Shown one piece after another: positions 1,096 through 16,725 of a stretch of 16,725 nt of DNA (its first letter is position 1; each line of letters opens with the position of its first letter). The notes beneath the pieces are model-generated. The model saw only the letters and a program-made list of their open reading frames with translations, was not told the origin of the DNA and ran no database searches. Position numbers and translations under genes: made by a program. The stretch lies in IMG/VR virus record IMGVR_UViG_638341082_000006. One strand, 5' to 3'. This DNA comes from a virus (lineage: Duplodnaviria > Heunggongvirae > Uroviricota > Caudoviricetes).

Positions 1096-2428
1096 CCTGG
1101 ATATTAACCAGGAAAAGATCATCAGAAGTTCACTTTTTGTACTAAATAATTCGCATTTTATGTTTAAAAATTGAGATATTCCTTATTACCTGAAGCTGTT
1201 TTTTATTGCTTATACATGATCAAATACTTCTTACATAATTAAGGAGAACAAAATGGAACTTAAAAAATTGATGGAACATATTTCTATTATCCCCGATTAC
1301 AGACAACCCTGGAAAGTGGAACATAAATTATCGGATATTCTACTGTTGACTATTTGTGCCGTTATTTCTGGTGCAGAAGGTTGGGAAAATATAGAGGATT
1401 TTGGGGAAACACATCTCGATTTTTTGAAGCAATATGGTGATTTTGAAAATGGCATTCCTGTTCACGATACCATTGCCAGAGTTGTATCCTGTATCAGTCC
1501 TGCAAAATTTCACGAGTGCTTTATTAACTTGATGCGTGATTGTCATTCTTCAGATGATAAAGACGTCATTGCAATTGATGGAAAAACGCTCCGGCACTCT
1601 TCTGACAAGAGTCACCGCAGGGGAGCGATTCATGTCATTAGTGCGTTCTCAACAATGCACAGTCTGGTCATCGGACAGATCAAGACGGATAAGAAATCTA
1701 ATGAGATTACAGCTATCCCTGAACTTATTAACATGCTGGATATTAAAGGAAAAATCATCACAACCGATGCGATGGGTTGCCAGAAAGATATTGCAGAGAA
1801 GATACAAAAACAGGGATGTGATTATTTATTCGCGGTAAAAGGAAACCAGGGGCGGCTAAATAAAGCCTTTGAGGAAAAATTTCCGCTGAAAGAATTAAAT
1901 AATCCAGAGCATGACAGTTACGCAATGAGTGAAAAGAGTCACGGCAGAGAAGAAATCCGTCTTCATATTGTTTGCGATGTCCCTGATGAACTTATTGATT
2001 TCACGTTTGAATGGAAAGGGCTAAAGAAATTATGCGTGGCAGTCTCCTTTCGGTCCATAATAGCAGAACAAAAGAAAGAGCCAGAAATGACGGTCAGATA
2101 TTATATCAGTTCTGTTGATTTAACCGCAGAGAAGTTCGCCACAGCAATCCGAAACCACTGGCACGTGGAGAATAAGCTGCACTGGCGTCTGGACGTGGTA
2201 ATGAATGAAGACGACTGCAAAATAAGAAGAGGAAATGCAGCAGAATTATTTTCAGGGATACGGCACATCGCTATTAATATTTTGACTAATGATAAGGTAT
2301 TCAAGGCAGGGTTAAGACGTAAGATGCAAAAAGCAGCCATGGAGAGAAACTATCTGGCGTCAGTCCTTGCGGGGAACGGGCTTTCGTAATCTTGCCCTGC
2401 CTGCTCACCTCCTCCAGGCACTTCCACT
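1096..2428 (+). mobile_element. ISAs1-family insertion sequence (H-repeat element); boundaries approximate
   Basis: Contains the 378-aa ISAs1/H-repeat transposase ORF; 8-bp direct repeat ACATGATG at 1088..1095 and 2429..2436 brackets a 1333-bp segment, the size expected for this family; terminal inverted repeats not identified by eye. Confidence 0.45.
1253..2389 (+). CDS. ISAs1-family transposase (H-repeat-associated protein, YhhI/YdcC-like), 378 aa
   Basis: Translation [20 protein letters not shown]...[13 protein letters not shown]... matches recalled E. coli H-repeat-associated proteins in length and sequence; RBS AAGGAG 8 nt upstream of ATG. Confidence 0.9.
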
Positions 2429-2659: not shown

Positions 2660-2818
2660 GTGGACTGGCTTCTTGATGTTTTTGCTACCTGGCTCTACGG
2701 CTTAAAAGTAATCGCGATAACGTTAGCGGTCATCATGTTCATCAGCGGGCTGGACGATTTTTTTATTGATGTCGTCTACTGGGTACGCCGCATTAAACGC
2801 AAGTTGAGTGTTTATCGC
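2660..2818 (+). pseudogene. 5' fragment (about 53 codons) of a membrane-protein gene truncated at a deletion junction; possibly nfrB-like
   Basis: GTG start with AAGG upstream; N-terminus MDWLLDVFATWLYGLKVIAITLAVIMFISGL has a clear hydrophobic helix then basic patch; beyond about 2818 the frame is antisense to the Nu1 homologue. Assignment to nfrB is from K-12 gene order memory, not alignment. Confidence 0.35.
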
Positions 2819-3328
2819 CGCTATCAGTTCATCCAGCGCGGCTGCTTTGTTCATGGCTTTGATGATATCCCGTTTCAGGAAATCAACATGTCGGTTTTCC
2901 AGTTCCGGAAAACGCCGCTGCACCGACAGGGGGATCCCGTCGAGAATACTGGCAATTTCACCTGCGATCCGCGACAGCACGAAAGTACAGAATGCGGTTT
3001 CCACCACTTCAGCGGAGTCTCTGGCATTTTTCAGCTCCTGTGCGTCGGCCTGCGCACGCGTAAGTCGATGGCGTTCGTACTCAATAGTCCCTGGCTGGAG
3101 ATCTGTCTCGCTGGCCTGCCGCAGTTCTTCAACTTCCCGGCGCAGCTTTTCGTTCTCAATTTCAGCATCCCTTTCGGCATACCATCTTATAACGGCGGCA
3201 GAGTCATAAAGCACCTCATTACCCTTGCCACCGCCTCGCAGAACGGGCATTCCCTGTTCCTGCCAGTTCTGAATGGTACGGATACTCGCACCGAAAATGT
3301 CAGCCAGCTGCTTTTTGTTGACTTCCAT
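2723..3328 (-). CDS. nohD: phage terminase small subunit, lambda Nu1 family, 201 aa with non-lambda C-terminal 30 aa (fusion at a deletion junction)
   Basis: Translation MEVNKKQLADIFGASIRTIQNWQEQGMPVLRGGGKGNEVLYDSAAVI... is near-identical to lambda Nu1 through ...KAMNKAAALDELI, then diverges; no large terminase gene follows. Confidence 0.9.
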   Translation of the reverse strand: MEVNKKQLADIFGASIRTIQNWQEQGMPVLRGGGKGNEVLYDSAAVIRWYAERDAEIENEKLRREVEELRQASETDLQPGTIEYERHRLTRAQADAQELKNARDSAEVVETAFCTFVLSRIAGEIASILDGIPLSVQRRFPELENRHVDFLKRDIIKAMNKAAALDELIAAINTQLAFNAAYPVDDINKKIVQPADEHDDR

Positions 3329-3329
3329 T

Positions 3330-3560
3330 GTTCATTCCACGGCCAAAAACAGAGAAAGGAAACGACAGAGGCCCAAAAGCTCGTTTTCAGCACCTGTCGT
3401 TTCCTTTCTTTTCAGGGGGTATTTTAAATAAAAACATTAAGTTACGACGAGAGAAGAACGGAAATGCCTTAAACCGGAAAATTTTCATAAATAGCGAAAA
3501 CCCGCGAGGTCGCCGCCCCGTAACCTGTCGGATCGCCGGAAAGGACCCGCAAAATGATAA
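3330..3560 (-). other. lambda-type cos site (cosB, cosN, cosQ-side); cosN cohesive-end sequence at 3507..3518
   Basis: 3507..3518 reads aggtcgccgccc, reverse complement of GGGCGGCGACCT (lambda 12-nt cohesive end, from memory); flanking sequence ...cgtaacctgtcggatcg... and the Nu1-proximal region resemble the lambda left/right ends. Confidence 0.8.
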
Positions 3561-3717
3561 TAATTATCATCTACATGTCACAACGTGCATCTACGCCATC
3601 AAACCACGTCAAATAATCAATTATGACGCAGGTATCGTATTAATTGATCTGCATCAACTTAACGTAAAAACAACTTCAGACAATACAAATCAGCGACACT
3701 GAATACGGGGCAACCTC

Positions 3718-3912
3718 ATGTCAACTAAGAACAGAACCCGCAGAACAACAACCCGCAACATCCGCTTTCCTAACCAAATGATTGAACAAATTAACATCGC
3801 TCTTGAGCAAAAAGGGTCTGGGAATTTCTCAGCCTGGGTCATTGAAGCCTGCCGTCGGAGACTAACGTCAGAAAAGAGAGCATATACATCAATCCAGAGT
3901 GATGATGAATAA
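3718..3912 (+). CDS. ylcI: small DUF3950-like protein, homologue of lambda orf64 / DLP12 ylcI, 64 aa
   Basis: ORF track 3718..3912; position between cos and bor on the strand expected from lambda right end; sequence ...NIRFPNQMIEQINIALEQKGSGNFSAW... Confidence 0.65.
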   Translation: MSTKNRTRRTTTRNIRFPNQMIEQINIALEQKGSGNFSAWVIEACRRRLTSEKRAYTSIQSDDE

Positions 3913-4271
3913 ACATCCCGGTTTCTTCCACCATCGCACCGGAAAAGCGACTATGAGGGTAACCCTGCGTCTGTCAGCACAGTAAAACCCGGTGTGCATC
4001 GTTTTTGATTATTCCCGCACACTCACGCAGAAGGAATTCCCCGTCGGGCTACGGTCATGGTTAATGCGGGAATACGGCGACGATACAGCGCAGCTAAAAG
4101 GGTAATGGACAGAAAGAGCGGTTTATTTCATTCCACAGGATTCTGAGTGCCCCCCTCCTCCAATAGGCTGAGCATCCACCTATATAGTTTTAATTTTCAT
4201 CAATCCATTTAACTATCGTTTAATTGTTGTCACATAGGATTCTGCCGTTTTTAACAATGCAGGATAATAAG

Positions 4272-4565
4272 ATGAAAAAAATGTTGTTTTCTGCCGCTCT
4301 GGCAATGCTTATTACAGGATGTGCTCAACAGACGTTTACTGTTGGAAACAAACCGACAGCAGTAACACCAAAGGAAACCATCACCCATCACTTCTTCGTT
4401 TCGGGAATTGGACAGGAGAAAACTGTTGATGCAGCCAAAATTTGTGGCGGCGCAGAAAATGTTGTTAAAACAGAAACCCAGCAAACATTCGTAAATGGAT
4501 TGCTCGGTTTTATTACTTTAGGCATTTATACTCCGCTGGAAGCGCGTGTGTATTGCTCACAATAA
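4272..4565 (+). CDS. borD: Bor-family outer-membrane lipoprotein (serum resistance), 97 aa
   Basis: Start moved to ATG at 4272 (MKKMLFSAALAMLITGC... lipobox LITGC) with AGGA upstream; matches recalled Bor length and sequence. Confidence 0.9.
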   Translation: MKKMLFSAALAMLITGCAQQTFTVGNKPTAVTPKETITHHFFVSGIGQEKTVDAAKICGGAENVVKTETQQTFVNGLLGFITLGIYTPLEARVYCSQ

Positions 4566-4575
4566 TTGCATGAGT

Positions 4576-4593
4576 TGCCCATCGATATGGGCA
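4576..4593. terminator. hairpin between convergent borD and rzpD, likely bidirectional terminator
   Basis: tgcccat-cgat-atgggca, 7-bp perfect stem with 4-nt loop, located between the two convergent stop codons. Confidence 0.5.
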
Positions 4594-4596
4594 GCT

Positions 4597-5058
4597 CTAT
4601 CTGCACTGCTCATTAATATACTTCTGGGTTCCTTCCAGTTGTTTTTGCATAGTGATCAGCCTCTCTCTGAGGGTGAAATAATCCCGTTCAGCGGTGTCTG
4701 CCAGTCGGGGGGAGGCTGCATTATCCACGCCGGAGGCGGTGGTGGCTTCACGCACTGACTGACAGACTGCTTTGATGTGCAACCGACGACGACCAGCGGC
4801 AACATCATCACGCAGAGCATCATTTTCAGCTTTCGCATTAGCTAACTCCTTCGTGTATTTTTCATCCAGTGCAGCAACATCACGCTGGCGCATCTGCATG
4901 TCAGTAATTGCCGCGTTCGCCAGCTTCAGTTCTCTGGCATTTTTGTCGCGCTGGGCTTTGTAGGTAATGGCGTTATCACGGTAATGATTAACAGCCCATG
5001 ACAGGCAGACGATGATGCAGATAACCAGAGCGGAGATAATCGCGGTTACTCTGTTCAT
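4597..5058 (-). CDS. rzpD: Rz-type i-spanin, 153 aa
   Basis: Start moved to ATG at 5058 ([23 protein letters not shown]... N-terminal TM helix, coiled-coil rich); ATG overlaps rrrD stop. Confidence 0.9.
4656..4838 (-). CDS. rzoD: Rz1-type o-spanin lipoprotein, 60 aa, embedded in +1 frame within rzpD
   Basis: [20 protein letters not shown]... lipobox then proline-rich [15 protein letters not shown]; entirely inside rzpD in another frame. Confidence 0.85.
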
Positions 5059-5552
5059 TGCTGACCCCACAAACAGATTTCACGCTCAATCTCACGACGA
5101 GTCATGAGACCTTTCCATTGCTTACCGCCAGCATATGTCCAGCGACGTAGCTGATCACATGCGCCTTTGATATCGCCCTGGTTTATTTTGCGAAGAAGCG
5201 TCGATGTTCTGAAATTGCCAGCGCCCACGTTGTAAACGAACGAGTAAAGAGCGCCGCGCGTTGTTTCCGGTATATCAACTTTTATGTACGGGTTAATTTG
5301 TCTGGCGACCGTGGCAAGGTCTTTATTCAGGAGGGCTTTGCATTCTGCTTTGGTATACGTTTTACCGAGCATGATGTCTTTTCCTGTATGCCCGTGACAT
5401 ACAGTCCATACACCAACAATATCTTTGTATGGTATGTAGCTGACACCTTCCAGACCATCGTTACCACTTGGGCCAGTGATTAACACTGATGCTATAGCAA
5501 TTGCTCCGCCACCAATAGCAGCAGCAACGGCTTTTCGTAATGATGGAGGCAT
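5055..5552 (-). CDS. rrrD: SAR endolysin (phage 21 R21-type lysozyme), 165 aa
   Basis: [27 protein letters not shown]... N-terminal signal-anchor-release segment followed by lysozyme domain; ATG overlaps essD stop. Confidence 0.95.
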
Positions 5553-5767
5553 TATTCACCTCTCGCAGCCTTGCGCTTATCTTCTTTAATCTTGAAATAA
5601 AGGTTTGTCAGGTACGTCAGCAGGCCAAATACCAGGCTACCCAGCACACCTATTGCTGCCCACTGTGAGGGCGTGACTTTATCGAGCAGCTGTAAAAACC
5701 AGTAACCGGCACTACCTGCTGAGGTGCCATAGGCGACACCCGTTGTTAACTTATCCATGGATTTCAT
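5552..5767 (-). CDS. essD: pinholin (phage 21 S21-type holin/antiholin), 71 aa
   Basis: Start moved to ATG at 5767 giving [26 protein letters not shown]...; dual-start motif M-K-S-M; GAGGTGG SD upstream. Confidence 0.9.
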
Positions 5768-5812
5768 AACCCCACCTCGCAGACAAAGCGGGTGTAAATT
5801 GAGGGAATACAA

Positions 5813-6355
5813 CGTATCGCAAAAAAGCAGAAACGTAACAGACTCGGAGTCAGTGAATAACTCAGGTATTGAGTTATCAGCTAATATCGAGACTCAAAAA
5901 ATGGAAAAACCAGCTCGACGGCGGGTTTAAGCTGTGTGACGAAGTAACCACTCTTAACAGCATAACCAATTTTTTACGTACGTAAACCACTGAATGATAT
6001 TTATGAGAATGCTACCGAGTGTTCAAAACACCACCACAAATATATAAGAAAACCTCAACAAATAACCAATAAATAATTTCCGGCGTTATTTTTAGTTGAT
6101 TTAAATTAAACCACCGAATTATAGAACCCCCATAAATAACAGCCATTAATATAAATTAGCTAATAGGTTTATTTTTGTTCAAATAAGAGCCATAAATAGG
6201 TTTCGATAGAAAAAGTTCAGATAAAAATAGAGATCTACTTCACAAATTAAATGAGAAACTAAAACTTACATCTTGAAATAATCACATTGATTAGATGAAT
6301 ATTTATCGCGCAGTGACATCATTTTTTAATAATAGTTCAAAAAAAAGGGCTCACG
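5813..6355 (+). promoter_or_regulatory. long AT-rich upstream regulatory region of nmpC (promoter not precisely mapped)
   Basis: 543 bp, strongly AT-rich, no ORF of 60 aa or more, directly precedes porin start with AAGGG RBS. Confidence 0.4.
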
Positions 6356-7438
6356 ATGAAAAAATTAACAGTGGCAATTTCTGCTGTAGCTGCATCAGTA
6401 CTGATGGCGATGTCTGCTCAGGCAGCTGAAATTTATAATAAAGACAGTAACAAGCTGGATCTGTACGGGAAAGTTAATGCCAAGCACTACTTTTCCTCTA
6501 ACGATGCAGATGATGGTGATACTACTTATGCCCGTCTTGGCTTCAAAGGTGAAACCCAAATCAACGATCAACTGACTGGTTTCGGTCAGTGGGAATATGA
6601 ATTCAAAGGCAACCGCGCTGAATCTCAAGGTTCCTCCAAAGACAAAACCCGTCTTGCATTTGCAGGCCTGAAATTCGGTGACTACGGCTCAATCGATTAC
6701 GGCCGTAACTACGGTGTAGCATACGACATCGGTGCGTGGACTGACGTTCTGCCAGAATTCGGTGGCGATACCTGGACCCAAACAGATGTGTTCATGACTG
6801 GTCGCACCACTGGTGTTGCAACCTATCGTAACAACGACTTCTTTGGTCTGGTCGATGGCCTGAACTTTGCTGCTCAGTATCAGGGTAAAAATGACCGCAC
6901 TGACGTAACTGAAGCCAATGGTGATGGTTTCGGTTTCTCCACTACTTATGAGTATGAAGGATTCGGCGTGGGTGCAACCTATGCTAAATCAGATCGCACT
7001 GACGGTCAGGTCGCCTATGGTAAGAGCAAATTCAATGCCTCCGGCAAAAATGCGGAAGTATGGGCTGCAGGCCTGAAATATGATGCGAACAATATCTATC
7101 TGGCTACCACATATTCTGAAACTCAGAATATGACCGTTTTTGGTAATAACCATATTGCAAACAAAGCACAAAACTTTGAAGCAGTAGCACAATATCAGTT
7201 TGACTTCGGTCTGCGACCATCTGTTGCTTACCTTCAGTCAAAAGGTAAAGACCTTGGTGTTCATGGTGACCGAGACTTAGTCAAGTATGTCGATGTCGGT
7301 GCTACTTACTACTTTAATAAAAACATGTCCACTTTTGTTGATTACAAAATCAACTTAATTGACGATAGTAAGTTTACCAAAACAGCTGGTATTGATACCG
7401 ACGACATCGTCGCTGTAGGTCTGGTGTATCAGTTCTAA
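6356..7438 (+). CDS. nmpC: outer-membrane general porin (OmpC/OmpF/NmpC family), 360 aa, apparently intact
   Basis: Signal peptide [23 protein letters not shown], beta-barrel porin sequence ending ...VAVGLVYQF; close match to recalled NmpC. Confidence 0.95.
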
Positions 7439-7575
7439 TCTGATTACGAAAAAGATATGTTGCGGGAGGCTTTGCCTCCCCAACATATAAGTGGCTCCCT
7501 CAAGCCACTTCCTTTAGAAGCACAACCTTGCTTCTAACTATATAAACCTTCTGTTATATATTACCCTTTATTTTT

Positions 7576-7604
7576 GGGGGCGTCTCAACGCCCCATTTTT
7601 AATA
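7576..7604 (+). terminator. intrinsic terminator downstream of nmpC
   Basis: gggggcg-tctcaa-cgcccc stem-loop followed by atttttaat; two further hairpins at about 7464..7480 and 7489..7510. Confidence 0.6.
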
Positions 7605-7627
7605 ATTTTTAGTAAACAATTGGCATA

Positions 7628-8011
7628 TTAATTAGAGTTATTAACAACGATATCCATCTCTAACCGGATATCTAATGCCATTAACATCCCTTCAATTATG
7701 CCCTCAGCCTTCTGTAACCTTTTCCCGATATAACCATCAGAGCAGCAATGCTTACCTGCCAGTGACATGAATGTCATACCGACTACATAATAATCTACTA
7801 ATAAATCGTGCAAATCGCTGTTGTTCTTTTTCAGACGGGCCATGCACCCGCAAATGATCATCGCGTCATCGTCACAACATTGCGGGCGAGATTTTACTTT
7901 TGAAGGAATTAATCCCTTAAAACCGGCGGCAATGGACGACCAGGTCACATCTTCATGATTATTAGCCGCCCACGCTCCCCAACGCTCAAGAACCATCTGA
8001 ATATCACGCAT
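7628..8011 (-). CDS. quuD: late-gene antiterminator Q, 127 aa
   Basis: Start moved to ATG at 8011 ([24 protein letters not shown]...); track ORF begins at an upstream TTG; matches recalled QuuD. Confidence 0.9.
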
Positions 8012-8096
8012 CAACTTACTCCACAAAAATCAGACCAGAACGCCAATTACAAGCAAAAATCAATAAAACAGTATTAGTTGATTGTTATCTCTGACT

Positions 8097-8234
8097 TCAT
8101 ACTCCTGCTCCTGTCAGGGTTTTGGCGTAATTCCTCAGTATTCGGTAATCGGTCAAAACAGAACCGGGGAAACGATATAAGCGCAGGCGCATCCAGCGGT
8201 GGCGAAGACGTTCTGCCATATAAGACTCAAACAT
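8097..8234 (-). CDS. ylcG: small protein, 45 aa, translationally coupled to rusA (ylcG position)
   Basis: Hand translation MFESYWQERLRHRWMRPRLYRFPGSVLTDYRILRNYAKTLTGAGV; ATG at 8232..8234 overlaps rusA stop. Confidence 0.5.
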   Translation of the reverse strand: MFESYMAERLRHRWMRLRLYRFPGSVLTDYRILRNYAKTLTGAGV

Positions 8235-8596
8235 CATTCATCTCCCAGTTCAGTGATGGTCAGTTCCAGCTTCCCACCTTTGGTAACAGGCATCTTCACA
8301 ACGCGGTAATCAACGACCAGCTCATCATCCAGCCAGAAACCTGCTTTAGTGAGTGCGTCAAAAGCGGCTTTTTGCAGATTATCCAGGTCACGGCGACGGC
8401 GATCCGGCATGTGGCACTCAATGCGGATTTTCACAGGCATAGCCAGGCCGATATCCAGCATTGCGTTTTTAATGATTCGGGCGACGTTATCGCGGTATGC
8501 CTGCCCCTCTGCGCTGACGTGCGTGCGCCCGCGATTATGGCGGTAATAGCGATTATTGCTCGGAGGCCAGGGTAATGTGATGCTGTAGGTATTCAC
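8234..8596 (-). CDS. rusA: RusA Holliday-junction resolvase, 120 aa
   Basis: [38 protein letters not shown]... matches recalled RusA; GTG start overlapping ybcO stop. Confidence 0.95.
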
Positions 8597-8883
8597 GCCT
8601 TAATAACCCCCTCTTTCAGCCAGATAACCTGTGTTCTCGCCATACCTTCCAGCGCGCATTCTTTTGCATATGCAGCATCGACAAAATGTGTGCGGCGGTC
8701 GATTTCGTCGTGGCAGGCAGAACATGCAATGGTGGCAATCAGGTCTGGCGGTTTGGTACCGGTGCCGCACAATCCAGTCAGCCGGATATGTGCCAGTACA
8801 GACGTTTCAGGGTTGCCATTACATACGCCAGGGATTCTTACCTGGCATTCCCGACCACGCGCTGCTTTTCTCAAATCAGCCAT
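8593..8883 (-). CDS. ybcO: putative nuclease YbcO, 96 aa
   Basis: Start moved to ATG at 8883 ([28 protein letters not shown]... with Cys/His cluster); AGGAGG RBS upstream; overlaps ninE stop. Confidence 0.85.
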
Positions 8884-9046
8884 GATTCCTCCTTGCTGCC
8901 AGTCGCAACCATTTTTTATCAACCAGGCTGGCGGTATATCCGAGCAGTGTTGGTATTTCGGATGGTTTCAGCTCAGGCTTACGCTTACGACGATTTGGTA
9001 CTCTGTAGATGTGTCCGTTCATGACACGAATAAGCGGTGTAGCCAT
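8876..9046 (-). CDS. ninE: NinE family protein, 56 aa
   Basis: Hand translation [56 protein letters not shown]; ATG overlaps ybcN stop (TAATG). Confidence 0.8.
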   Translation of the reverse strand: MATPLIRVMNGHIYRVPNRRKRKPELKPSEIPTLLGYTASLVDKKWLRLAARRNHG

Positions 9047-9501
9047 TACGCCTCCTGCTTGTCGCGCAGCAGCTGGAACTCGCAGCTCTGCGGAATAGTC
9101 AGGTGGCAGCCAATATTCATCGCCCAGGCTTCAACCTTACACAGGAAGACATACATCTCTCCGGTATCAAGATTGGAGGTATGACGTAATGACTGAATGG
9201 TGGTGATTTCACCGGTTACGACATCAACCAGTTCTTTGGTTTCATAACCGAGATAAGTGTGTTTGAGAGCATCTTTTACCCAAGCTGGAGTGGCGAACGT
9301 TTTACCCCTGCTGATGAGGTATTCACTGATTTCGCTGTACCACATGTGGCTGAGTGCATTCTGGGAAAGACTGCGTCTCTCGCGCCACGGTTTAAGCACC
9401 ATGCGAAAGCATTTGCCGTCCTCCAGATAAGGCTGGATCTGCCGACCGATAGCGGTGAAGTTACCGCGATGCAATTTGATACCATCTTGTGGGAGGTTCA
9501 C
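9046..9501 (-). CDS. ybcN: NinB-like recombination / DNA base-flipping protein YbcN, 151 aa
   Basis: [54 protein letters not shown]... ; GTG start with GGAGG RBS. Confidence 0.9.
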
Positions 9502-9693
9502 GCTTCACCTCCGCAGAGATCAAACGCTGGATGCAAAATATCGCAGGTGCATTTCTGCATCTGTGAATGGAGAAGAGAGGTTGGATTGTATGTGCGCATA
9601 AACGTCCCCGTTTAGCGCAGAAGTCACCGGAGGAGTTCAAACTCCGGTGACTTAATTATGGCAAGTTGATTGTTGAAAATCAATTTAGTGGAT

Positions 9694-10476
9694 TTAGGCG
9701 CAATACAAAGGATCATTAGCAGCTCTAATACCGCCCTGAATCGCAAGCCCTGTATGGCAATTTGACATTGAGCATGATTGCCATCTGTGCAAGGGACCTC
9801 CATTAATCGAAACTTCCAGCAGATCTTTATCTCCTTTCATCCTGACCCCTTCATACAACATATCAAGACGCTCAACAATCAATCCTGTTGGAGGTTCCAT
9901 TTTTAGAACGAGGGCAAACTCTCCTGGCCCACGTCGTATTGTTATACGCGGGCCGGTACACTCCACATCCCAATTGTCTGATTTAGCTTTCCATTCATTT
10001 TCATCTATCAGTAAAGTCTCCTTACCAATAGAATTACAGAAAATTCCTGATAAAAGCATCGGTCCATGTGGTATGGGTGAAGGTTTCACAGAAAGAATGG
10101 GTTGTTCGTTGACTACAATCAAATTTTGACAGTTATGAAACGTCACTCCTGCAAATTTTACTGTTATAGGCTCATTATGAAAATCAAACATTTCATTTGC
10201 AAAACCAGCCTGTAAGCACTTGGGATTTCTGTCAGCTATTTCCACTGTCTGTGCTGAAAGTCTACCACGAGCTCTTTTTTGATTGCATTGGGAGCAAAGA
10301 AGTGTCATTCCATTCGGATCATGTATTTTGGCATCAACGAAGTCAGGTTTAAAATGCTCATAATCATAAAATCCAAATCCACAAATTACACAGCCAAAGC
10401 CGCACCTTTGCCTTATCTGACGTTTTATTGTCTCAGGTATTCTTCTTGAGAGCCCGTGTTTATTAATATTGTCCAT
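9694..10476 (-). CDS. HNH-endonuclease-domain protein with about 190-aa C-terminal domain of unknown function, 260 aa
   Basis: N-terminal motif IPETIKRQIRQRCGFGCVICGF...YDYEHFKP...PNGMTLLCSQCNQKR (CxxC...H...N...CxxCN, typical HNH); ATG start; about 40 percent GC, lower than flanking phage genes. Confidence 0.75.
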   Translation of the reverse strand: MDNINKHGLSRRIPETIKRQIRQRCGFGCVICGFGFYDYEHFKPDFVDAKIHDPNGMTLLCSQCNQKRARGRLSAQTVEIADRNPKCLQAGFANEMFDFHNEPITVKFAGVTFHNCQNLIVVNEQPILSVKPSPIPHGPMLLSGIFCNSIGKETLLIDENEWKAKSDNWDVECTGPRITIRRGPGEFALVLKMEPPTGLIVERLDMLYEGVRMKGDKDLLEVSINGGPLHRWQSCSMSNCHTGLAIQGGIRAANDPLYCA

Positions 10477-10650
10477 ATGGTTAGTACGCTATAAGTTTGT
10501 TTCTATAATTTTACCACAATAGATAAGTTTGTATCAGAAATCGCTATATGGAGTGAGCGGAATATTTATATTATTCATGCAATTGCTCTCCCGTACGCAG
10601 CCCGCACTTCCGTCATCGCAGAATGACGGAAGCCTTACTAACTAGCGCCT

Positions 10651-10974
10651 TTATTGAAACAGATTCTGAGGTAAATGCGGCAATACTTGACTCCACTTAT
10701 CATCCTGCCACGGCTGAAGTTTTACATGTGCCGTTTCTCGGGCGAGGATTGCTCGCGCTCTGTTGAGTCTCTGGGGATATTCTTGCTCGATGGAAGTGAA
10801 GTGACCAGCCTCACCATGCTCCGCATCCTGAAGAAGATGAGTAACGTTCTGGTAGGCAATTAACATCACATTCCCTGCTCGCCATAACCAGGCGAGTGTG
10901 CAAAGTTCGTTATCAGTGAATTGTTTTGTGATTGGGAATTGTTGAACTGCTAGAACGGGAACGCCAGCATCCAT
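10651..10974 (-). CDS. hypothetical protein, 107 aa
   Basis: ORF track; ATG start preceded by in-frame TAG five codons upstream, so the start is well bounded; weak SD; no recognisable motif. Confidence 0.4.
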   Translation of the reverse strand: MDAGVPVLAVQQFPITKQFTDNELCTLAWLWRAGNVMLIAYQNVTHLLQDAEHGEAGHFTSIEQEYPQRLNRARAILARETAHVKLQPWQDDKWSQVLPHLPQNLFQ

Positions 10975-11085
10975 TGGCAGTCCCTATAGTAAAACCATAG
11001 CTCAGGACGCTTCGTTCAGGATAGATACTTTTATTGTACTTACCTAACTTTCTTACTATAGCACGGTTGGAAAAGTGATTATTAC

Positions 11086-12612
11086 TCAAAAATAAACCTC
11101 ACCATCAACCATATATTTGAGAGTACTTATCGCCTGCTGGGCGGATATTGTTTTCATTAAAGGATAGTGTTTAAAAACAATGCCATTCATAAAATAGATA
11201 TCACAGGTTTTATTATCTGTATTGATTATGATTTTTTCGAATGTTTTATAGGCAAGTGTACGACATAGCTCTCGCCCATTTTTACTGGTTAAGTCAATAG
11301 CATGAAAATCACCAAGTGAACTCACCGCTTTACTCTTCAAAGTTTTTAATGATACCGAAGCCCTTCGTAATTCTTTATCTAATACTCTGATTTTTTCTGC
11401 TATAGCGGTAACTTCAGGCGCAACAGATAATGCAGCAATTAAATTATTAATTTTCATCTGGAGCTCAATAATTTTCAACTCTAAAGTTTCATTAGCATCT
11501 TTCTTGTTTTCAACTGGTTGGATTTTACTACAATTAAAAAGCAACTCATTAATGATATTATAATCAACCAAATCTCTCTTTATTGATGGCCTGTCACATC
11601 GATGCAGTCTTCTCATCGGACAAACATAATAGCCATGCAAACTTCCAGATACCGCATGAACAATCATGGTATTACCACAAGCCTCGCACTTCATAACTGT
11701 TCGAAGTAGATTTATCAACATAGGATTTTTGCTACTATTGCTAATACCAAAAGGTGCCAACCGAATTTCCTGCACAGCGTAAAACAAATCATCTGATATG
11801 ACTCTGGGATAATAGCCAGCGATTTCACTTATTCCTTTACCTCTTGCACGATATGAAGGTACGCATATACCTATCAGAGCTTTATTCGCTAATAATTTTT
11901 CAATTACAGAAGGCCCCCATGCACTTTCTTTGCCTGAGAAATTTTTTACAGCATGATCATTTAAATACTTGGCTATTGCATTCAATGATCGCCTTTCCAT
12001 CCTGAGTTTAAAAATTAGCTCAATCGTTTTCACCCTGTCGGGGTCTGGAATAAAAGCTGTTCTTTTGTCATCCAATGAGAGCCATCTCGGACAAGACGCC
12101 GTCATAATCGTGCCTGACTCCAGTGCATCCTGCCGTTTTTTCTTCCATGATAATTTAACCCGACTTGACTTTATCTCGCTTTCTTCATTTGCCCTTTGTG
12201 CTATAAGTATGGCTTTTATTAATGAATATGGATCATTCAAAGAGTCAATATTATAGACTGTATTATCGCAAAGAGTTATAACATCAATACCGTGATTCAA
12301 AATCAATTTCAGACGCTCAATCGCTTCACCGACTTTTTCTCTTGAAAGTCTGTCCAAACTTTCAACTAACAATGTAGTTCCTGGCAATATATAACCATGC
12401 TCTATAGCATCTAAAAATTCCGAAAAAGCTCCTGATTGTGCATGCTTTCCTTTGAATGCACTTAATCCTAAATCTTCATATGTTATGGTATCAAGATAAT
12501 AATCACTATTTACCTTTAACCATTCAGCAATAAGTCTTCTCTGTCGGTTCAATGAGTCGCCAGACATCTGACCTGGTGATGAAAATCGCATATATGCTAT
12601 GGCTTTTTTCAT
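11086..12612 (-). CDS. ybcK: large serine recombinase (resolvase/invertase-type catalytic domain plus recombinase and zinc-ribbon regions), 508 aa
   Basis: N-terminal AIAYMRFSSPGQ...NRQ serine-recombinase catalytic motif; C-terminal Cys cluster CEACGN...YYVCPMRRLHRC and coiled coil; matches recalled YbcK length; about 34 percent GC. Confidence 0.9.
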   Translation of the reverse strand: MKKAIAYMRFSSPGQMSGDSLNRQRRLIAEWLKVNSDYYLDTITYEDLGLSAFKGKHAQSGAFSEFLDAIEHGYILPGTTLLVESLDRLSREKVGEAIERLKLILNHGIDVITLCDNTVYNIDSLNDPYSLIKAILIAQRANEESEIKSSRVKLSWKKKRQDALESGTIMTASCPRWLSLDDKRTAFIPDPDRVKTIELIFKLRMERRSLNAIAKYLNDHAVKNFSGKESAWGPSVIEKLLANKALIGICVPSYRARGKGISEIAGYYPRVISDDLFYAVQEIRLAPFGISNSSKNPMLINLLRTVMKCEACGNTMIVHAVSGSLHGYYVCPMRRLHRCDRPSIKRDLVDYNIINELLFNCSKIQPVENKKDANETLELKIIELQMKINNLIAALSVAPEVTAIAEKIRVLDKELRRASVSLKTLKSKAVSSLGDFHAIDLTSKNGRELCRTLAYKTFEKIIINTDNKTCDIYFMNGIVFKHYPLMKTISAQQAISTLKYMVDGEVYF

Positions 12613-12867
12613 GGTGACACCTGCTAACGTATGCTTTTATAAACCTTAGTGGTGGGATATAACTTTTGTTTAATTTTTATTTAAAAAGACAATTAAGGTC
12701 ACATTATCTTGAATATACAACAATAATCGTATTGCAATTTTCTCACGCCATAATCTTGAAAGCACAAAAGAATACATAAAAAATAAAGACATTAACAAAA
12801 AGCATAAAACGAGGCTCATATAAATATAAGAGCCTCCATATTTTAGTCGTTTAAAAACAAATTATTT

Positions 12868-13200
12868 TTAATGTGGTGTGCTTCGTGACAATAAATTAAT
12901 AACCAACACACCGGCACAAATCAACATCATGCCTATAATGGCTGGCAGGTCCAGCCGTTGGCCGAAAAATCCCCATGACAGTAAGCTAATCAGGACAATA
13001 CCGACTCCTGACCAGATAGCATAAGCAATCCCTGTAGGAATATAAGCCAGCGTCTGAGCTAATAACCAGAATGATGCACAATAACAAATAATTGTACCAA
13101 CAGATGGCCATAACCGTGTAAAACCTTCTGAAAACTTCATTAAGGTTGTACCAATGACCTCTGCAAGTATTGCACCACCAAGATAAATATAAGGGTTCAT
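12868..13200 (-). CDS. emrE: small multidrug resistance efflux transporter EmrE, 110 aa
   Basis: Start moved to ATG at 13200: MNPYIYLGGAILAEVIGTTLMKFSEGF... with conserved Glu14 in TM1; near-identical to recalled EmrE. Confidence 0.95.
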   Translation of the reverse strand: MNPYIYLGGAILAEVIGTTLMKFSEGFTRLWPSVGTIICYCASFWLLAQTLAYIPTGIAYAIWSGVGIVLISLLSWGFFGQRLDLPAIIGMMLICAGVLVINLLSRSTPH

Positions 13201-13267
13201 AGCATATTCTTTCCTGTTCAAACTGGAGAGAATTGTACTACAGTTTGAAATCAACTCACCTGTTTCA

Positions 13268-13570
13268 TCATTGTGTACCCATTGATGTTCTTTTATATAC
13301 CCTCAATACGCGTTTCATCGCGGCACTCTGGCGACACTCCTTAAAAATCAGATTCGTGCTCACCTTTCCTTCCCGTTCTTCTCTGGTAGCGAACCGGTAA
13401 TACACCGTTCGCCAGACCTTACCATCAACGACCAGGATTCCTGCCCGCGCCATTTTAGCCGCAGCCTGATTTATGCTGGTTACGGTTGCGCCTGTTACCG
13501 CGGCAACGTCCTGTGCACAGAAGCTCTTATGCGTCCCCAGGTAATGAATAATTGCCTCTTTGCCCGTCAT
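13268..13570 (-). CDS. renD: Ren exclusion protein homologue, 100 aa, apparently intact
   Basis: MTGKEAIIHYLGTHKSFCAQDVAAVTGATVTSINQAAAKMARAG... closely matches recalled lambda Ren; ATG overlaps P stop. Confidence 0.9.
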   Translation of the reverse strand: MTGKEAIIHYLGTHKSFCAQDVAAVTGATVTSINQAAAKMARAGILVVDGKVWRTVYYRFATREEREGKVSTNLIFKECRQSAAMKRVLRVYKRTSMGTQ

Positions 13571-14268
13571 ACACTTGCTCCTTTCAGTCCGAACTTAGCT
13601 TTAATTTCTGCGATCTTCGCCAGAGCCTGTGCACGATTTAGAGGTCTACCGCCCATAACAGGAAGTTGTTTTACTGGTTCAGGTATCGTCTCACCACGGT
13701 TAATTCGCGCTGTCATACAGGTCAGTTCATCGGCAGCCTTGCGCCGTAATTCCGCGTCAGTCAGCGCATTGGCCCGCATGTTCTGGTACAAGTTGGTAAC
13801 CAACCAGTAATGCGCGTTCGATTTCCACGGATAAGACTCTGCATCCGGATACAGGCCACGCTTCCGGCAATACTCGTAAACCATATCAACCAGCTCGCTG
13901 ACGTTTGGCAGCCCGGCGTTAACAGATGCTTCTTCCCGGCACCAGGCGACAAACTGCCCGGGTGATGGCAGGAATGGTCGATTCTGCCGACGGGCTACGC
14001 GCATTCCAGCGTTAACCTGTTCCATTGTGGTGATCCCGTTTTCCCGGAAAGCCAGAACCCACTGGCGGCGGATTTCGTTCAGTTCATTCTGGTCACGGTT
14101 AGCCAGGCTCGCCGGGAAAGTTGCCAGTAACTGGCTGAACACACCGTTGATGATCTGCGCTACCTGCTGTACCTGTGGCTTTTCGTCGTACTGTTCCGGC
14201 ATGTTGTTGGCGATCCGGCGCATCTGCTCACAGTCAAAGTTAACCATCTGTGCGGCGATGTTTTTCAT
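13567..14268 (-). CDS. P: replication protein P (DnaB helicase loader), lambda P family, 233 aa
   Basis: MKNIAAQMVNFDCEQMRRIANNMPEQYDEKPQVQQVAQIING... near-identical to recalled lambda P over its full length; ATG overlaps O stop. Confidence 0.95.
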   Translation of the reverse strand: MKNIAAQMVNFDCEQMRRIANNMPEQYDEKPQVQQVAQIINGVFSQLLATFPASLANRDQNELNEIRRQWVLAFRENGITTMEQVNAGMRVARRQNRPFLPSPGQFVAWCREEASVNAGLPNVSELVDMVYEYCRKRGLYPDAESYPWKSNAHYWLVTNLYQNMRANALTDAELRRKAADELTCMTARINRGETIPEPVKQLPVMGGRPLNRAQALAKIAEIKAKFGLKGASV

Positions 14269-15167
14269 AGCTCCACCCCGTAAATCCAGTCAGTGTTCGT
14301 CAGGTCGAGTTTTGGTTTGCCGGCTATCACGCCAGCCTGTTGCTTGTTTCGGTTGATTTCGAGCTGGGTCCACTTGTCGCGGAGTTTGGCCGGACTTAGC
14401 ACGTTACCGGACCAGAAGTTGTCCTGGCATGCCCAGCGGAACAGCACACACATGTCGCGGTGGTTACGTCCGTCACGTTCACGCATCAGGCGGATATCGT
14501 TAGCCCACCCTGCAAAATTCGGTTTTCTGGCTGATGGCGCGATGGTCTTCACCATGTCAAACATCCACTCTGCGGCGGTCAGGTCTTCTGCTGTCCCCCA
14601 CTTGCTGCCGCTCTGAATTGCAGCATCCGGTTTCACCACAGGAAGATCGTTTTCTGGTTGGTCAGAGGATTCGCCAGAATTCTCGGACGAAAAAGGTTTT
14701 ATATTGTCTTTTGTTAGTTTGTCTTTTGTGTTTACCTGATTCGGGTAAACGCCTTTACCTGATTTGGGTAAACTTTTTTTACCTGATTCAGGTAAATTTA
14801 CCTCTTTCAGGTAAACTTTATTTTTCTTACCTGATTCGGGTAATGTTGACCATTCACTGACCACATTATTAATGCCGGTATTCCGCCCGCTCTGAATAAA
14901 AATCCCACGCTTTACCAGAACACTTTTTGCAGCAGAACACTTGTGCGGCAATATCCCGGTTAATTCGGAAAGTTGCTCGTTGCTAACCCAATCCAGTTTT
15001 TTATTAAAGCCATATGTTTTGCGCATGACAGCCAGAAAGACCAGAAGCTGGTGCTGTGTTAATCCGGCCAACTGAGGTGTAAAAATGTTCAGAATCATTT
15101 TGCCTAACACCTGGTACGTCGACCACCACGGCACTCCCTGCAAAATCCTGCGTTCTACCCACAACAA
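14265..15167 (-). CDS. O: replication initiator O family protein containing ori iterons; start uncertain (track starts at TTG; alternative ATG about 69 nt downstream giving MILNIF...)
   Basis: C-terminal ...FRWACQDNFWSGNVLSPAKLRDKWTQLEINRNKQQAGVIAGKPKLDLTNTDWIYGVEL matches lambda O C-terminus; N-terminal DNA-binding part differs from lambda. Confidence 0.85.
   Translation of the reverse strand: MLWVERRILQGVPWWSTYQVLGKMILNIFTPQLAGLTQHQLLVFLAVMRKTYGFNKKLDWVSNEQLSELTGILPHKCSAAKSVLVKRGIFIQSGRNTGINNVVSEWSTLPESGKKNKVYLKEVNLPESGKKSLPKSGKGVYPNQVNTKDKLTKDNIKPFSSENSGESSDQPENDLPVVKPDAAIQSGSKWGTAEDLTAAEWMFDMVKTIAPSARKPNFAGWANDIRLMRERDGRNHRDMCVLFRWACQDNFWSGNVLSPAKLRDKWTQLEINRNKQQAGVIAGKPKLDLTNTDWIYGVEL
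14733..14845. repeat. replication origin iterons: five copies of an 18-bp repeat TACCTGATTCGGGTAAAC inside the O gene, next to an AT-rich stretch (about 14690..14732)
   Basis: Copies at about 14733, 14756, 14780, 14799 and 14828 with 1-3 mismatches each; arrangement mirrors lambda ori (iterons inside O followed by AT-rich region). Confidence 0.75.
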
Positions 15168-15334
15168 AGTTCACTACATCCGAAAAGGCAGAACATGTAT
15201 CGCCAGCATGTTCCGCTTTAATCATGACTTTGAACCTGTGAATAAAGCTGATGCAGATCGGATAGCAGAAGAGATCGAAACGGCAGAACACATTAAGAAG
15301 TTACGTGACATGCGTTCAAAAAGCAGAGGTAACC

Positions 15335-15706
15335 ATGGAATCATACAGCCTCACACTCGATGAGGCCTGTCAGTTTCTTAAGATATCCAGACCAACCGCC
15401 ACCAACTGGATACGAACAGGCCGCCTACAGGCAACACGTAAAGATCCAACCAAGCCAAAATCTCCTTACCTCACAACACGGCAAGCCTGCATTGCGGCGC
15501 TTCAGTCTCCGCTGCATACTGTCCAGGTGAGCGCGGGTGATGGCATAACAGAGGAAAGAAAATGTCACTCTTCCGCAGAAATGAAATATGGTATGCCTCG
15601 TATTCGCTCCCGGGCGGGAAACGAATTAAGGAATCTCTTGGCACAAAGGACAAGCGGCAAGCTCAGGAGTTGCACGACAAGCGAAAAGCAGAACTCTGGC
15701 GAGTAG
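15335..15706 (+). CDS. xisD: excisionase-like DNA-binding protein, 123 aa from the ATG, overlapping the int start by 145 nt
   Basis: [36 protein letters not shown]... helix-turn-helix excisionase-like N-terminus directly upstream of int; track ORF starts at upstream GTG. Confidence 0.6.
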
Positions 15707-16725
15707 AAAAGCTAGGGGATTTACCTGATGTCACTTTTGAAGAGGCCTGCCTAAGATGGCTTGAGGAAAAAGCTGATAAAAAATCTCTCGATTCAGATAA
15801 AAGCCGGATTGAGTTCTGGCTTGAACATTTTGAGGGTATAAGGCTTAAAGATATCTCGGAGGCAAAGATTTACTCTGCTGTAAGCAGAATGCATAACAGA
15901 AAGACGAAAGAAATATGGAAACAGAAAGTTCAGGCCGCCATCAGGAAAGGTAAAGAACCGCCTGTTTATGAACCAAAGCCAGTATCAACTCAGACAAAGG
16001 CAAAGCATCTTGCCATGATAAAGGCCATTCTCCGTGCTGCAGAACGCGACTGGAAGTGGCTGGAAAAAGCGCCTGTCATCAAGATACCAGCGGTCAGAAA
16101 CAAGCGAGTCAGATGGCTGGAAAAGGAGGAAGCAAAACGCCTTATTGATGAGTGCCCCGAACCACTGAAATCTGTCGTCAAGTTTGCGCTGGCAACTGGT
16201 CTGAGAAAGTCGAACATCATAAATCTGGAATGGCAACAAATCGACATGCAGCGACGAGTTGCCTGGGTGAATCCAGAAGAGAGCAAATCAAACCGCGCCA
16301 TTGGTGTGGCGCTGAACGATACCGCCTGTAAAGTGTTGCGTGATCAAATAGGCAAGCATCACAAATGGGTGTTTGTACATACCAAGGCGGCTAAGCGAGC
16401 AGATGGAACATCAACGCCTGCGGTCAGGAAGATGCGCATCGACAGCAAGACATCATGGCTATCAGCTTGTCGTCGTGCAGGAATTGAAGATTTCCGTTTC
16501 CATGACCTCAGACACACCTGGGCAAGCTGGCTGATTCAGTCAGGCGTCCCATTATCAGTGCTTCAGGAAATGGGCGGATGGGAGTCCATAGAAATGGTTC
16601 GTAGGTATGCTCACCTTGCGCCTAATCATTTGACAGAGCATGCGAGGAAAATAGACGACATTTTTGGTGATAATGTCCCAAATATGTCCCACTCTGGAAT
16701 TATGGAGGATATAAAGAAGGCGTAA
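15562..16725 (+). CDS. intD: tyrosine integrase, P22/DLP12 type, 387 aa
   Basis: [34 protein letters not shown]... with C-terminal catalytic motifs [11 protein letters not shown]...VRRYAHL; GAGGAAAG RBS; window ends at its stop codon. Confidence 0.95.

Follow-up and report, generated by a model that had tools for sequence, protein, structure and literature searches.

Can a lambdoid element that has lost its repressor still replicate on its own if it keeps an origin and the genes O and P? The locus studied here, a stretch of 16,725 nucleotides that we call the window, raises this question: the original prediction described its replication module as retained while the immunity region is absent, and reasoned that such an element could in principle replicate. 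Our comparisons lead to a different picture. We consider it highly probable that the region is a scar, left in a DLP12-family prophage at argU by one illegitimate-recombination deletion, and that the replication module is an inert remnant. The window is a strain-specific deletion variant of a well-known cryptic prophage family; there is nothing novel in it, the decay is of the ordinary prophage kind, and the result matters little beyond annotation hygiene. It does correct the idea of a repressor-less, replication-competent lambdoid replicon in Escherichia coli B-JRPT-4119, and it documents a further independent route by deletion to the loss of the immunity and early-left region, and to chromosomal fixation, in DLP12-type prophages.

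The prophage at argU and its relatives

The window belongs to the DLP12 family: it is a cryptic lambdoid prophage that sits at the E. coli tRNA gene argU. All 16.7 kb are 100% identical to the chromosome of strain B-JRPT-4119, and the genomes of NCCP12480, O15_8X and FORC_082 are nearly identical to it, the differences being IS1 insertions. In the PGAP annotation of the window-identical DNA, the far end carries an ISAs1 transposase and a terminase small-subunit remnant, followed by ylcI, iss, rzpD, rrrD, essD, a porin gene, quuD, ylcG, rusA, ybcO, ninE and ybcN, and, at the argU end, by ybcK, ylcJ, emrE, ren, P, a “replication protein” gene, a DUF4222 gene, an HTH pseudogene and intD. Membership in the DLP12 family is seen in the intD-type integrase beside the argU tRNA-Arg gene, in the gene order ren-emrE-ybcK ... 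rusA-quuD-porin-lysis genes, and in an incomplete phage gene set, which ends in the terminase small-subunit remnant and then the ISAs1 transposase. The window itself stops at the int stop codon, and in the genomes of 100% identity the tRNA-Arg gene lies 16 bp beyond. Since the annotation of the window-identical DNA contains no head or tail genes, the element is defective regardless of the state of its O region.

The 378-aa ISAs1-family transposase (1253-2389, plus strand) adjoins the terminase remnant at the far end of the prophage, and this end is probably the site where the late and structural genes were lost. The genes emrE (12868-13200, minus strand) and ybcK, which encodes a serine recombinase (11086-12612, minus strand), follow ren in the same order in the free-living phage Lambda_4A7 (NC_049946, Bievrevirus). 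As it is carried by this phage, the “host” multidrug transporter gene emrE is a phage moron that still circulates on active phages.

The features of the argU-proximal part are as follows.

13268..13570, minus strand: ren, intact, 100 aa, 90% identical to lambda Ren; annotated by PGAP as “protein ren” in identical genomes
13567..14268, minus strand: P (helicase loader), intact, 233 aa, 97% identical to lambda P end to end with no gaps
14265..15070, minus strand: O', the last 806 nt of the initiator gene O (codons 42-309 when O is counted as 309 aa); colinear with the intact O of 4A7, EC05 and GPEC709 only up to 15070
14692..14731, no strand: A+T-rich stretch beside the iterons on the P side, read from the sequence
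14732..14843, no strand: five 17-bp dyad-symmetric iterons, TTACC-N7-GGTAA, inside O'; five found against 0.03 expected by chance (shuffled sequence)
15068..15070, no strand: deletion junction, a 3-bp CCA common to both parents (three-way alignment; block ends agree)
15071..15167, minus strand: non-O 5' extension of the O' reading frame, antisense of the DUF4222 start region (alignment with the DUF4222 side; translation)
15085..15363, plus strand: DUF4222 gene, intact, 92 aa (Pfam PF13973, E = 1.7e-19, profile positions 1-53 of 53; PGAP WP_000488419.1)
15335..15706, plus strand: xis-like HTH reading frame overlapping the int start (Pfam HTH_17, E = 1.2e-8)
15562..16725, plus strand: intD-type tyrosine integrase, 387 aa; tRNA-Arg (argU) is next in identical genomes

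P and Ren are thus full length, as originally predicted. The xis-like reading frame extends 145 nt into int; PGAP accepts 66 nt of it and calls it an incomplete HTH pseudogene in all DLP12 relatives inspected, including the apparently complete prophage of GPEC709.

Several known elements serve as references. K-12 DLP12 at argU has the same integrase type by tRNA-Arg, is likewise defective and without an immunity region, and shows the same order ren-emrE-ylcJ-ybcK ... ybcN-ninE-ybcO-rusA-ylcG-quuD-porin-essD-rrrD-rzpD. We take K-12 DLP12 to keep fragments of exo and P (exoD and peaD) and to have no O. The window was cut at other points: it still has O' (codons 42-309), ori and an intact P but no exo. 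The undeleted counterpart, GPEC709 (NZ_CM142803, argU), is colinear with window 2818-15070 (97.4%) and 15065-16725 (99.9%), and has the same O class, P, ren, DUF4222, intD and flanking gene order. This prophage may be complete, and terminase genes are present. Lambda_4A7 shares the O-P-ren-emrE-ylcJ-ybcK block (97.7% DNA identity to window 14000-15070) together with the five-iteron and DUF4222 regions, but has another integrase (icd site), a complete immunity and recombination region and a complete O (annotated as 339 aa).

The deletion junction

The original prediction let xis and int abut the O start region directly and located the lost genes between 15168 and 15334, where it saw two overlapping, unconvincing open reading frames. 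One of these, 15085-15363 on the plus strand, proved to be the genuine conserved DUF4222 gene, which stands between xis/int and O. Three-way alignment moves the junction to 15068-15070, i.e., inside the reading frame that had been taken for O.

Four independent comparisons place the end of homology to intact O genes, on the O side, at 15070. A megablast search against phages with 14265-15400 as query matched only 14265-15070, always to the 3' part of O genes; in pairwise BLAST against Lambda_4A7 the O-side block stops at 15070 and the DUF4222-side block runs from 15068; against EC05 (argU site), O-side homology again stops at 15070; and GPEC709 (argU site) gives two blocks, window 2818-15070 and 15065-16725. 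In pairwise BLAST against TKEC21-59 the right-hand block begins at 15065, and across comparisons DUF4222-side homology starts at 15065-15068. Base by base, the two parental sequences have only CCA in common at 15068-15070, with five of the six bases agreeing over 15065-15070. Such microhomology is characteristic of illegitimate recombination. The junction connects a position 14 nt 5' of the DUF4222 ATG with gene O at 124 nt into its sequence. It is carried by only 4 of 5426 complete E. coli genomes, all 100% identical across it, which we take as one recent event in one lineage.

Relative to the undeleted GPEC709 prophage, the window is without 6917 bp. There, the genes run intD, xis', DUF4222, traR/dksA, a hypothetical gene, DUF1382, DUF1317, exo, bet, gam, kil, PP2C phosphatase, Ser/Thr kinase, cI (S24 peptidase), a cro-like regulator, ydaT-like (cII position), O (309 aa), P, ren, emrE and the genes beyond. 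What the window lacks amounts to 13 complete genes (from traR/dksA to the gene at the cII position), both early promoter regions and the first 124 nt of O, which are codons 1-41 of the 309-aa form; counted against the 339-aa annotation of 4A7, the loss from O is 214 nt (71 codons). A single deletion of about 6.9 kb would have taken traR/dksA, three small reading frames, exo, bet, gam, kil and the PP2C phosphatase/Ser/Thr kinase pair, and with them cI, cro, the ydaT-like gene, the two early promoters and O codons 1-41. The oop region also lies within the deleted segment. In agreement with the original prediction, none of cI, cro, cII, N, exo, bet and gam is annotated by PGAP in the window-identical genomes, and GPEC709 carries cI, cro, the ydaT-like gene, exo, bet, gam, kil and the full 309-aa O. 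The DUF4222 gene keeps its own Shine-Dalgarno sequence, while the operon upstream of it on the pL side is deleted.

In GPEC709 (12554-19470), the Ser/Thr kinase and PP2C phosphatase genes sit between kil and cI, and a ydaT-like gene occupies the cII position.

Other prophages of this kind have been cut elsewhere. At the argU site of EC05 (NZ_CM169495, 1566-3437), a different deletion joins ydaT' to gam' and leaves the 309-aa O intact; EC05 shows that the immunity region of this prophage family has been eroded repeatedly and independently. In a 4A7-like prophage at the icd site (GCA_012555365.1, contig AASSUJ010000053, 3897-4809), an independent deletion joins the region just after xis to O, and its O breakpoint lies 17 bp from that of the window (13373 and 13356 on a common reference). 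The resulting int-xis-O' arrangement encodes a 269-aa O' protein, whose cluster (P0004) holds 897 member sequences. We considered a breakpoint hot spot in O and rejected it, as the query by itself puts proteins with a similar truncation at the top of the list; O remnants cut at many other points (151-250 aa) in the same list also speak against it. We ascribe the closeness of the two end points to this ranking of hits.

Truncation of O and the origin within it

The gene reported as full-length O is O-derived only over 14265-15070, which amounts to 806 of the 930 nt of the gene (309 aa), or of 1020 nt if the 4A7 annotation is followed. The only candidate starts of the O' reading frame, TTG 15167, GTG 15110 and ATG 15098, all fall in the non-O stretch 15071..15167. 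When the frame is read from TTG 15167 as a 300-aa protein, residues 1-32 are antisense to the DUF4222 region and O-derived sequence begins at about L33 (LAGLTQHQ...). The best Shine-Dalgarno sequence that we could read for any of these starts is a 3-nt AGG, 4 nt before the ATG. PGAP annotates the fusion as an intact 281-aa “replication protein” (WP_166739731.1; GTG 15110, 14265-15110, minus strand) and sets no pseudogene flag. The first 13 codons of this entry derive from DUF4222 in antisense and 41 codons of O are lacking, so the RefSeq “replication protein” is a truncated fusion reading frame and not an intact initiator.

The architecture around the break is that of lambda, with the origin inside O. 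As predicted from the sequence, there are five ori iterons, and they are of a non-lambda type: their consensus is TTACCTGATTCGGGTAA with up to 3 mismatches, they start at 14732, 14755, 14779, 14798 and 14827, and the start-to-start spacings are 23, 24, 19 and 29 bp. The same stretch is found in intact relatives, and the array lies in the coding sequence of its own initiator, as expected of a lambdoid O. Lambda has four iterons where the window has five of the form TTACC-N7-GGTAA. DNA homology to lambda (95% identity from there to the end of the compared segment in P) stops exactly at the iterons, at window 14731. By its position, the A+T-rich stretch 14692..14731 would be the counterpart of the unwinding region of lambda ori (PMC5043065). 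On the other side of the array, the O N-domain shows about 46% identity with lambda O and 58% with P22 gp18, and has its own iteron sequence; the C-terminal domain hardly differs from that of lambda O, and alignment columns 201-341 are almost invariant among the window, 4A7 and lambda, so the conserved P-interacting domain is present. This matches a classic modular arrangement, with N-domain and iterons jointly determining origin specificity. In some full-length relatives of the same class (P0008, P0011-P0014), 16 or 24 residues are absent precisely where the iterons are encoded; this corresponds to 48 or 72 nt and would leave 3 or 2 iterons in place of 5, and members of a single specificity class seem to differ in iteron number.

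The original prediction also noted that the conserved QHQLLVFLAVMRKTYGFNK helix sits unusually close to the possible starts, which we confirm, and offered two explanations, a different specificity class or a 5' end clipped by the deletion. The first holds as a description, given the N-domain at about 46% identity to lambda O and the iterons of its own, but does not account for the short N-terminus. The second does, through the homology break at 15070 and a partial Pfam profile: Phage_rep_O (PF04492) is matched over profile positions 22-95 of 95 in the window, compared with 1-95 in 4A7 and 2-95 in lambda, so the N-terminal DNA-binding domain is incomplete.

What is missing is a conserved segment. 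In an alignment of lambda-like, P22/Salmonella-like, Pantoea and 4A7-class proteins (full-length relatives), the lost segment corresponds to the helix motif VADLDDGYTRIANELLEAV, kept by every intact O compared across several specificity classes. In the motif RVADLDDGYTRIANELLEAV within the missing segment, the V, A, D, G, R, N and L positions are invariant (V52, A53, D57, G58, R61, N64 and L66 in the numbering of the full-length relative P0001). At these positions the window has unrelated sequence. Homologues found by tblastn with the 4A7 N-domain, down to 35-58% identity, all cover the lost segment.

Could O nevertheless be a complete and functional initiator from a class with a naturally short N-terminus? 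Its N-domain and iterons do belong to a non-lambda class, and PGAP puts no pseudogene flag on the reading frame. Yet all full-length members of the same class carry the extra N-terminal segment (P0001, the full-length form of the window's O class, has 7825 member sequences and 97% identity), the Pfam domain is matched in part only, and the shorter database entries are other truncations or partial contigs. The break in nucleotide homology at 15070, where the sequence switches to that upstream of DUF4222, refutes this explanation, and we regard it as virtually impossible. Because the segment lost here is conserved in relatives, the homology breaks at the junction and the full-length form of the class is common, the short N-terminus of O is a truncation and not a natural variant.

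The consequence for DNA binding is less direct. According to published work the N-terminal part of O binds ori and the C-terminal part binds P (PMC6022878; PMC4488673), and our literature search for the exact N-terminal limits of the lambda O DNA-binding domain gave only the general statement that the N-terminal region or half binds ori. Sequence and profile searches of the PDB found no solved structure of an O-type protein, the only match being spurious (E = 0.064). An AlphaFold2 model of P0001, built from a 24-sequence alignment, has a mean pLDDT of 51.7 (50-68 in the N-domain). We dropped a structural argument for loss of function, as this model is too weak for a fold search, and use its helix positions (59-71, 77-91, 102-109 and 113-125, then short strands) cautiously. 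If the model is right, the lost helix 59-71 would precede the canonical winged-helix core (77-91, 102-109, 113-125 and the wing) that the window keeps, and residual iteron binding by the O' fusion protein would be possible. The original prediction had named a truncated and nonfunctional N-terminal DNA-binding domain as evidence that would speak against it; the alignment displays the truncation, and the loss of function we infer from it.

Replication capacity and fate of the remnant

A minimal lambda replicon requires pR, O, P and ori, with ori dependent on transcription in cis; in its minimal lambda-dv form the replicon consists of pR-cro-cII-O-P (PMC5043065; PMC3349717). The window has lost pR, cro, cII, oop and O codons 1-41, which leaves it short of the minimum (PMC5043065). 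The pR/cro/cII region, and with it the rightward early promoter, lies within the deleted 6917 bp, and P is intact beside an O that is truncated at its 5' end. A consensus scan of both strands of 14900-16725 found no sigma-70-like sites (2.2 expected by chance). In identical genomes, argU is oriented like O' and starts 1.5 kb upstream of it, so read-through from argU may enter the region. The replication module is not retained in the way that was proposed.

These observations are consistent with the following course of events. The deletion left behind ori DNA, comprising the five iterons and the A+T-rich stretch; an O fragment without its own start codon, ribosome-binding site and promoter and without the helix conserved in the intact O proteins compared; and P and ren as intact but presumably promoterless reading frames. 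No cognate initiator would then be made, ori would lack the rightward transcription that activates it in cis, and the replicon would be inert. Sequence comparison makes autonomous replication very unlikely, and the suggestion that the element could in principle replicate finds no support, given the truncated N-terminal DNA-binding domain of O. P on its own, without O, is highly toxic (PMC6022878). An intact P in a repressor-less element is for this reason best explained by transcriptional silence; the P reading frame probably persists because it is silent.

The main challenge to an inert remnant is that O', started from ATG 15098 or GTG 15110, binds the iterons and fires the origin with P whenever transcription enters the locus. 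In favour of this, ori DNA and P are intact, in-frame start codons are available (PGAP places a 281-aa “replication protein” there), all of the C-terminal P-binding domain is kept, and so are the helix-turn-helix and wing of the N-domain as predicted by the low-confidence model. What is gone is the helix that every intact O compared retains across classes. The starts have poor Shine-Dalgarno sequences and no promoter-like site, and P is already frameshifted in the sister genome FORC_082. In addition, firing of an unexcised origin in situ is deleterious to the host. The pR-type transcription needed in cis has been deleted (PMC5043065), and since P expression is deleterious (PMC6022878), counter-selection would be expected. 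We give a functional O' a slim chance.

A remnant of this type might also have been co-opted to exclude superinfecting phages of its own replication class by acting on their replication, with the O' C-terminal domain sequestering incoming P or the iterons titrating incoming O. Ectopic ori-lambda copies, or ori plus oop fragments, do inhibit phages with rep-lambda (PMC4488673; PMC3349717), in its C-terminal domain O' is all but identical to lambda O, and the independent deletion in the icd-site prophage left a very similar O'. However, the known effects required 20-40 plasmid copies (PMC4488673) and the locus here is single copy, and the known alternative required oop transcription together with iterons (PMC3349717). 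With the oop region in the deleted segment, we rejected this oop/iteron inhibition phenotype (PMC3349717) as a function of the remnant. The consensus scan of 14900-16725 found no promoter-like site that could serve O', the junction is rare (4/5426 genomes) and the module is decaying. O remnants in the database are cut at many different positions, and similar end points need no selection. Co-option for exclusion is, in our judgement, extremely improbable. The more specific proposal that the promoterless O' fusion (winged-helix core plus lambda-type P-binding domain, minus the conserved N-terminal helix), expressed at a low level, acts as a dominant-negative decoy that stops superinfecting phages of the 4A7/lambda-P class from replicating is highly improbable as well. 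If it were true, the ori-O'-P segment would have been kept in two independently deleted prophages (argU and icd) by selection and not by chance.

An inert remnant thus remains the preferred reading, and the element would be a chromosomally fixed one that is still decaying. Decay of the module is visible in sister genomes: FORC_082, which has the same junction, carries the P frameshift and an IS1 in emrE/ybcK, and NCCP12480 has an IS1 in ybcK.
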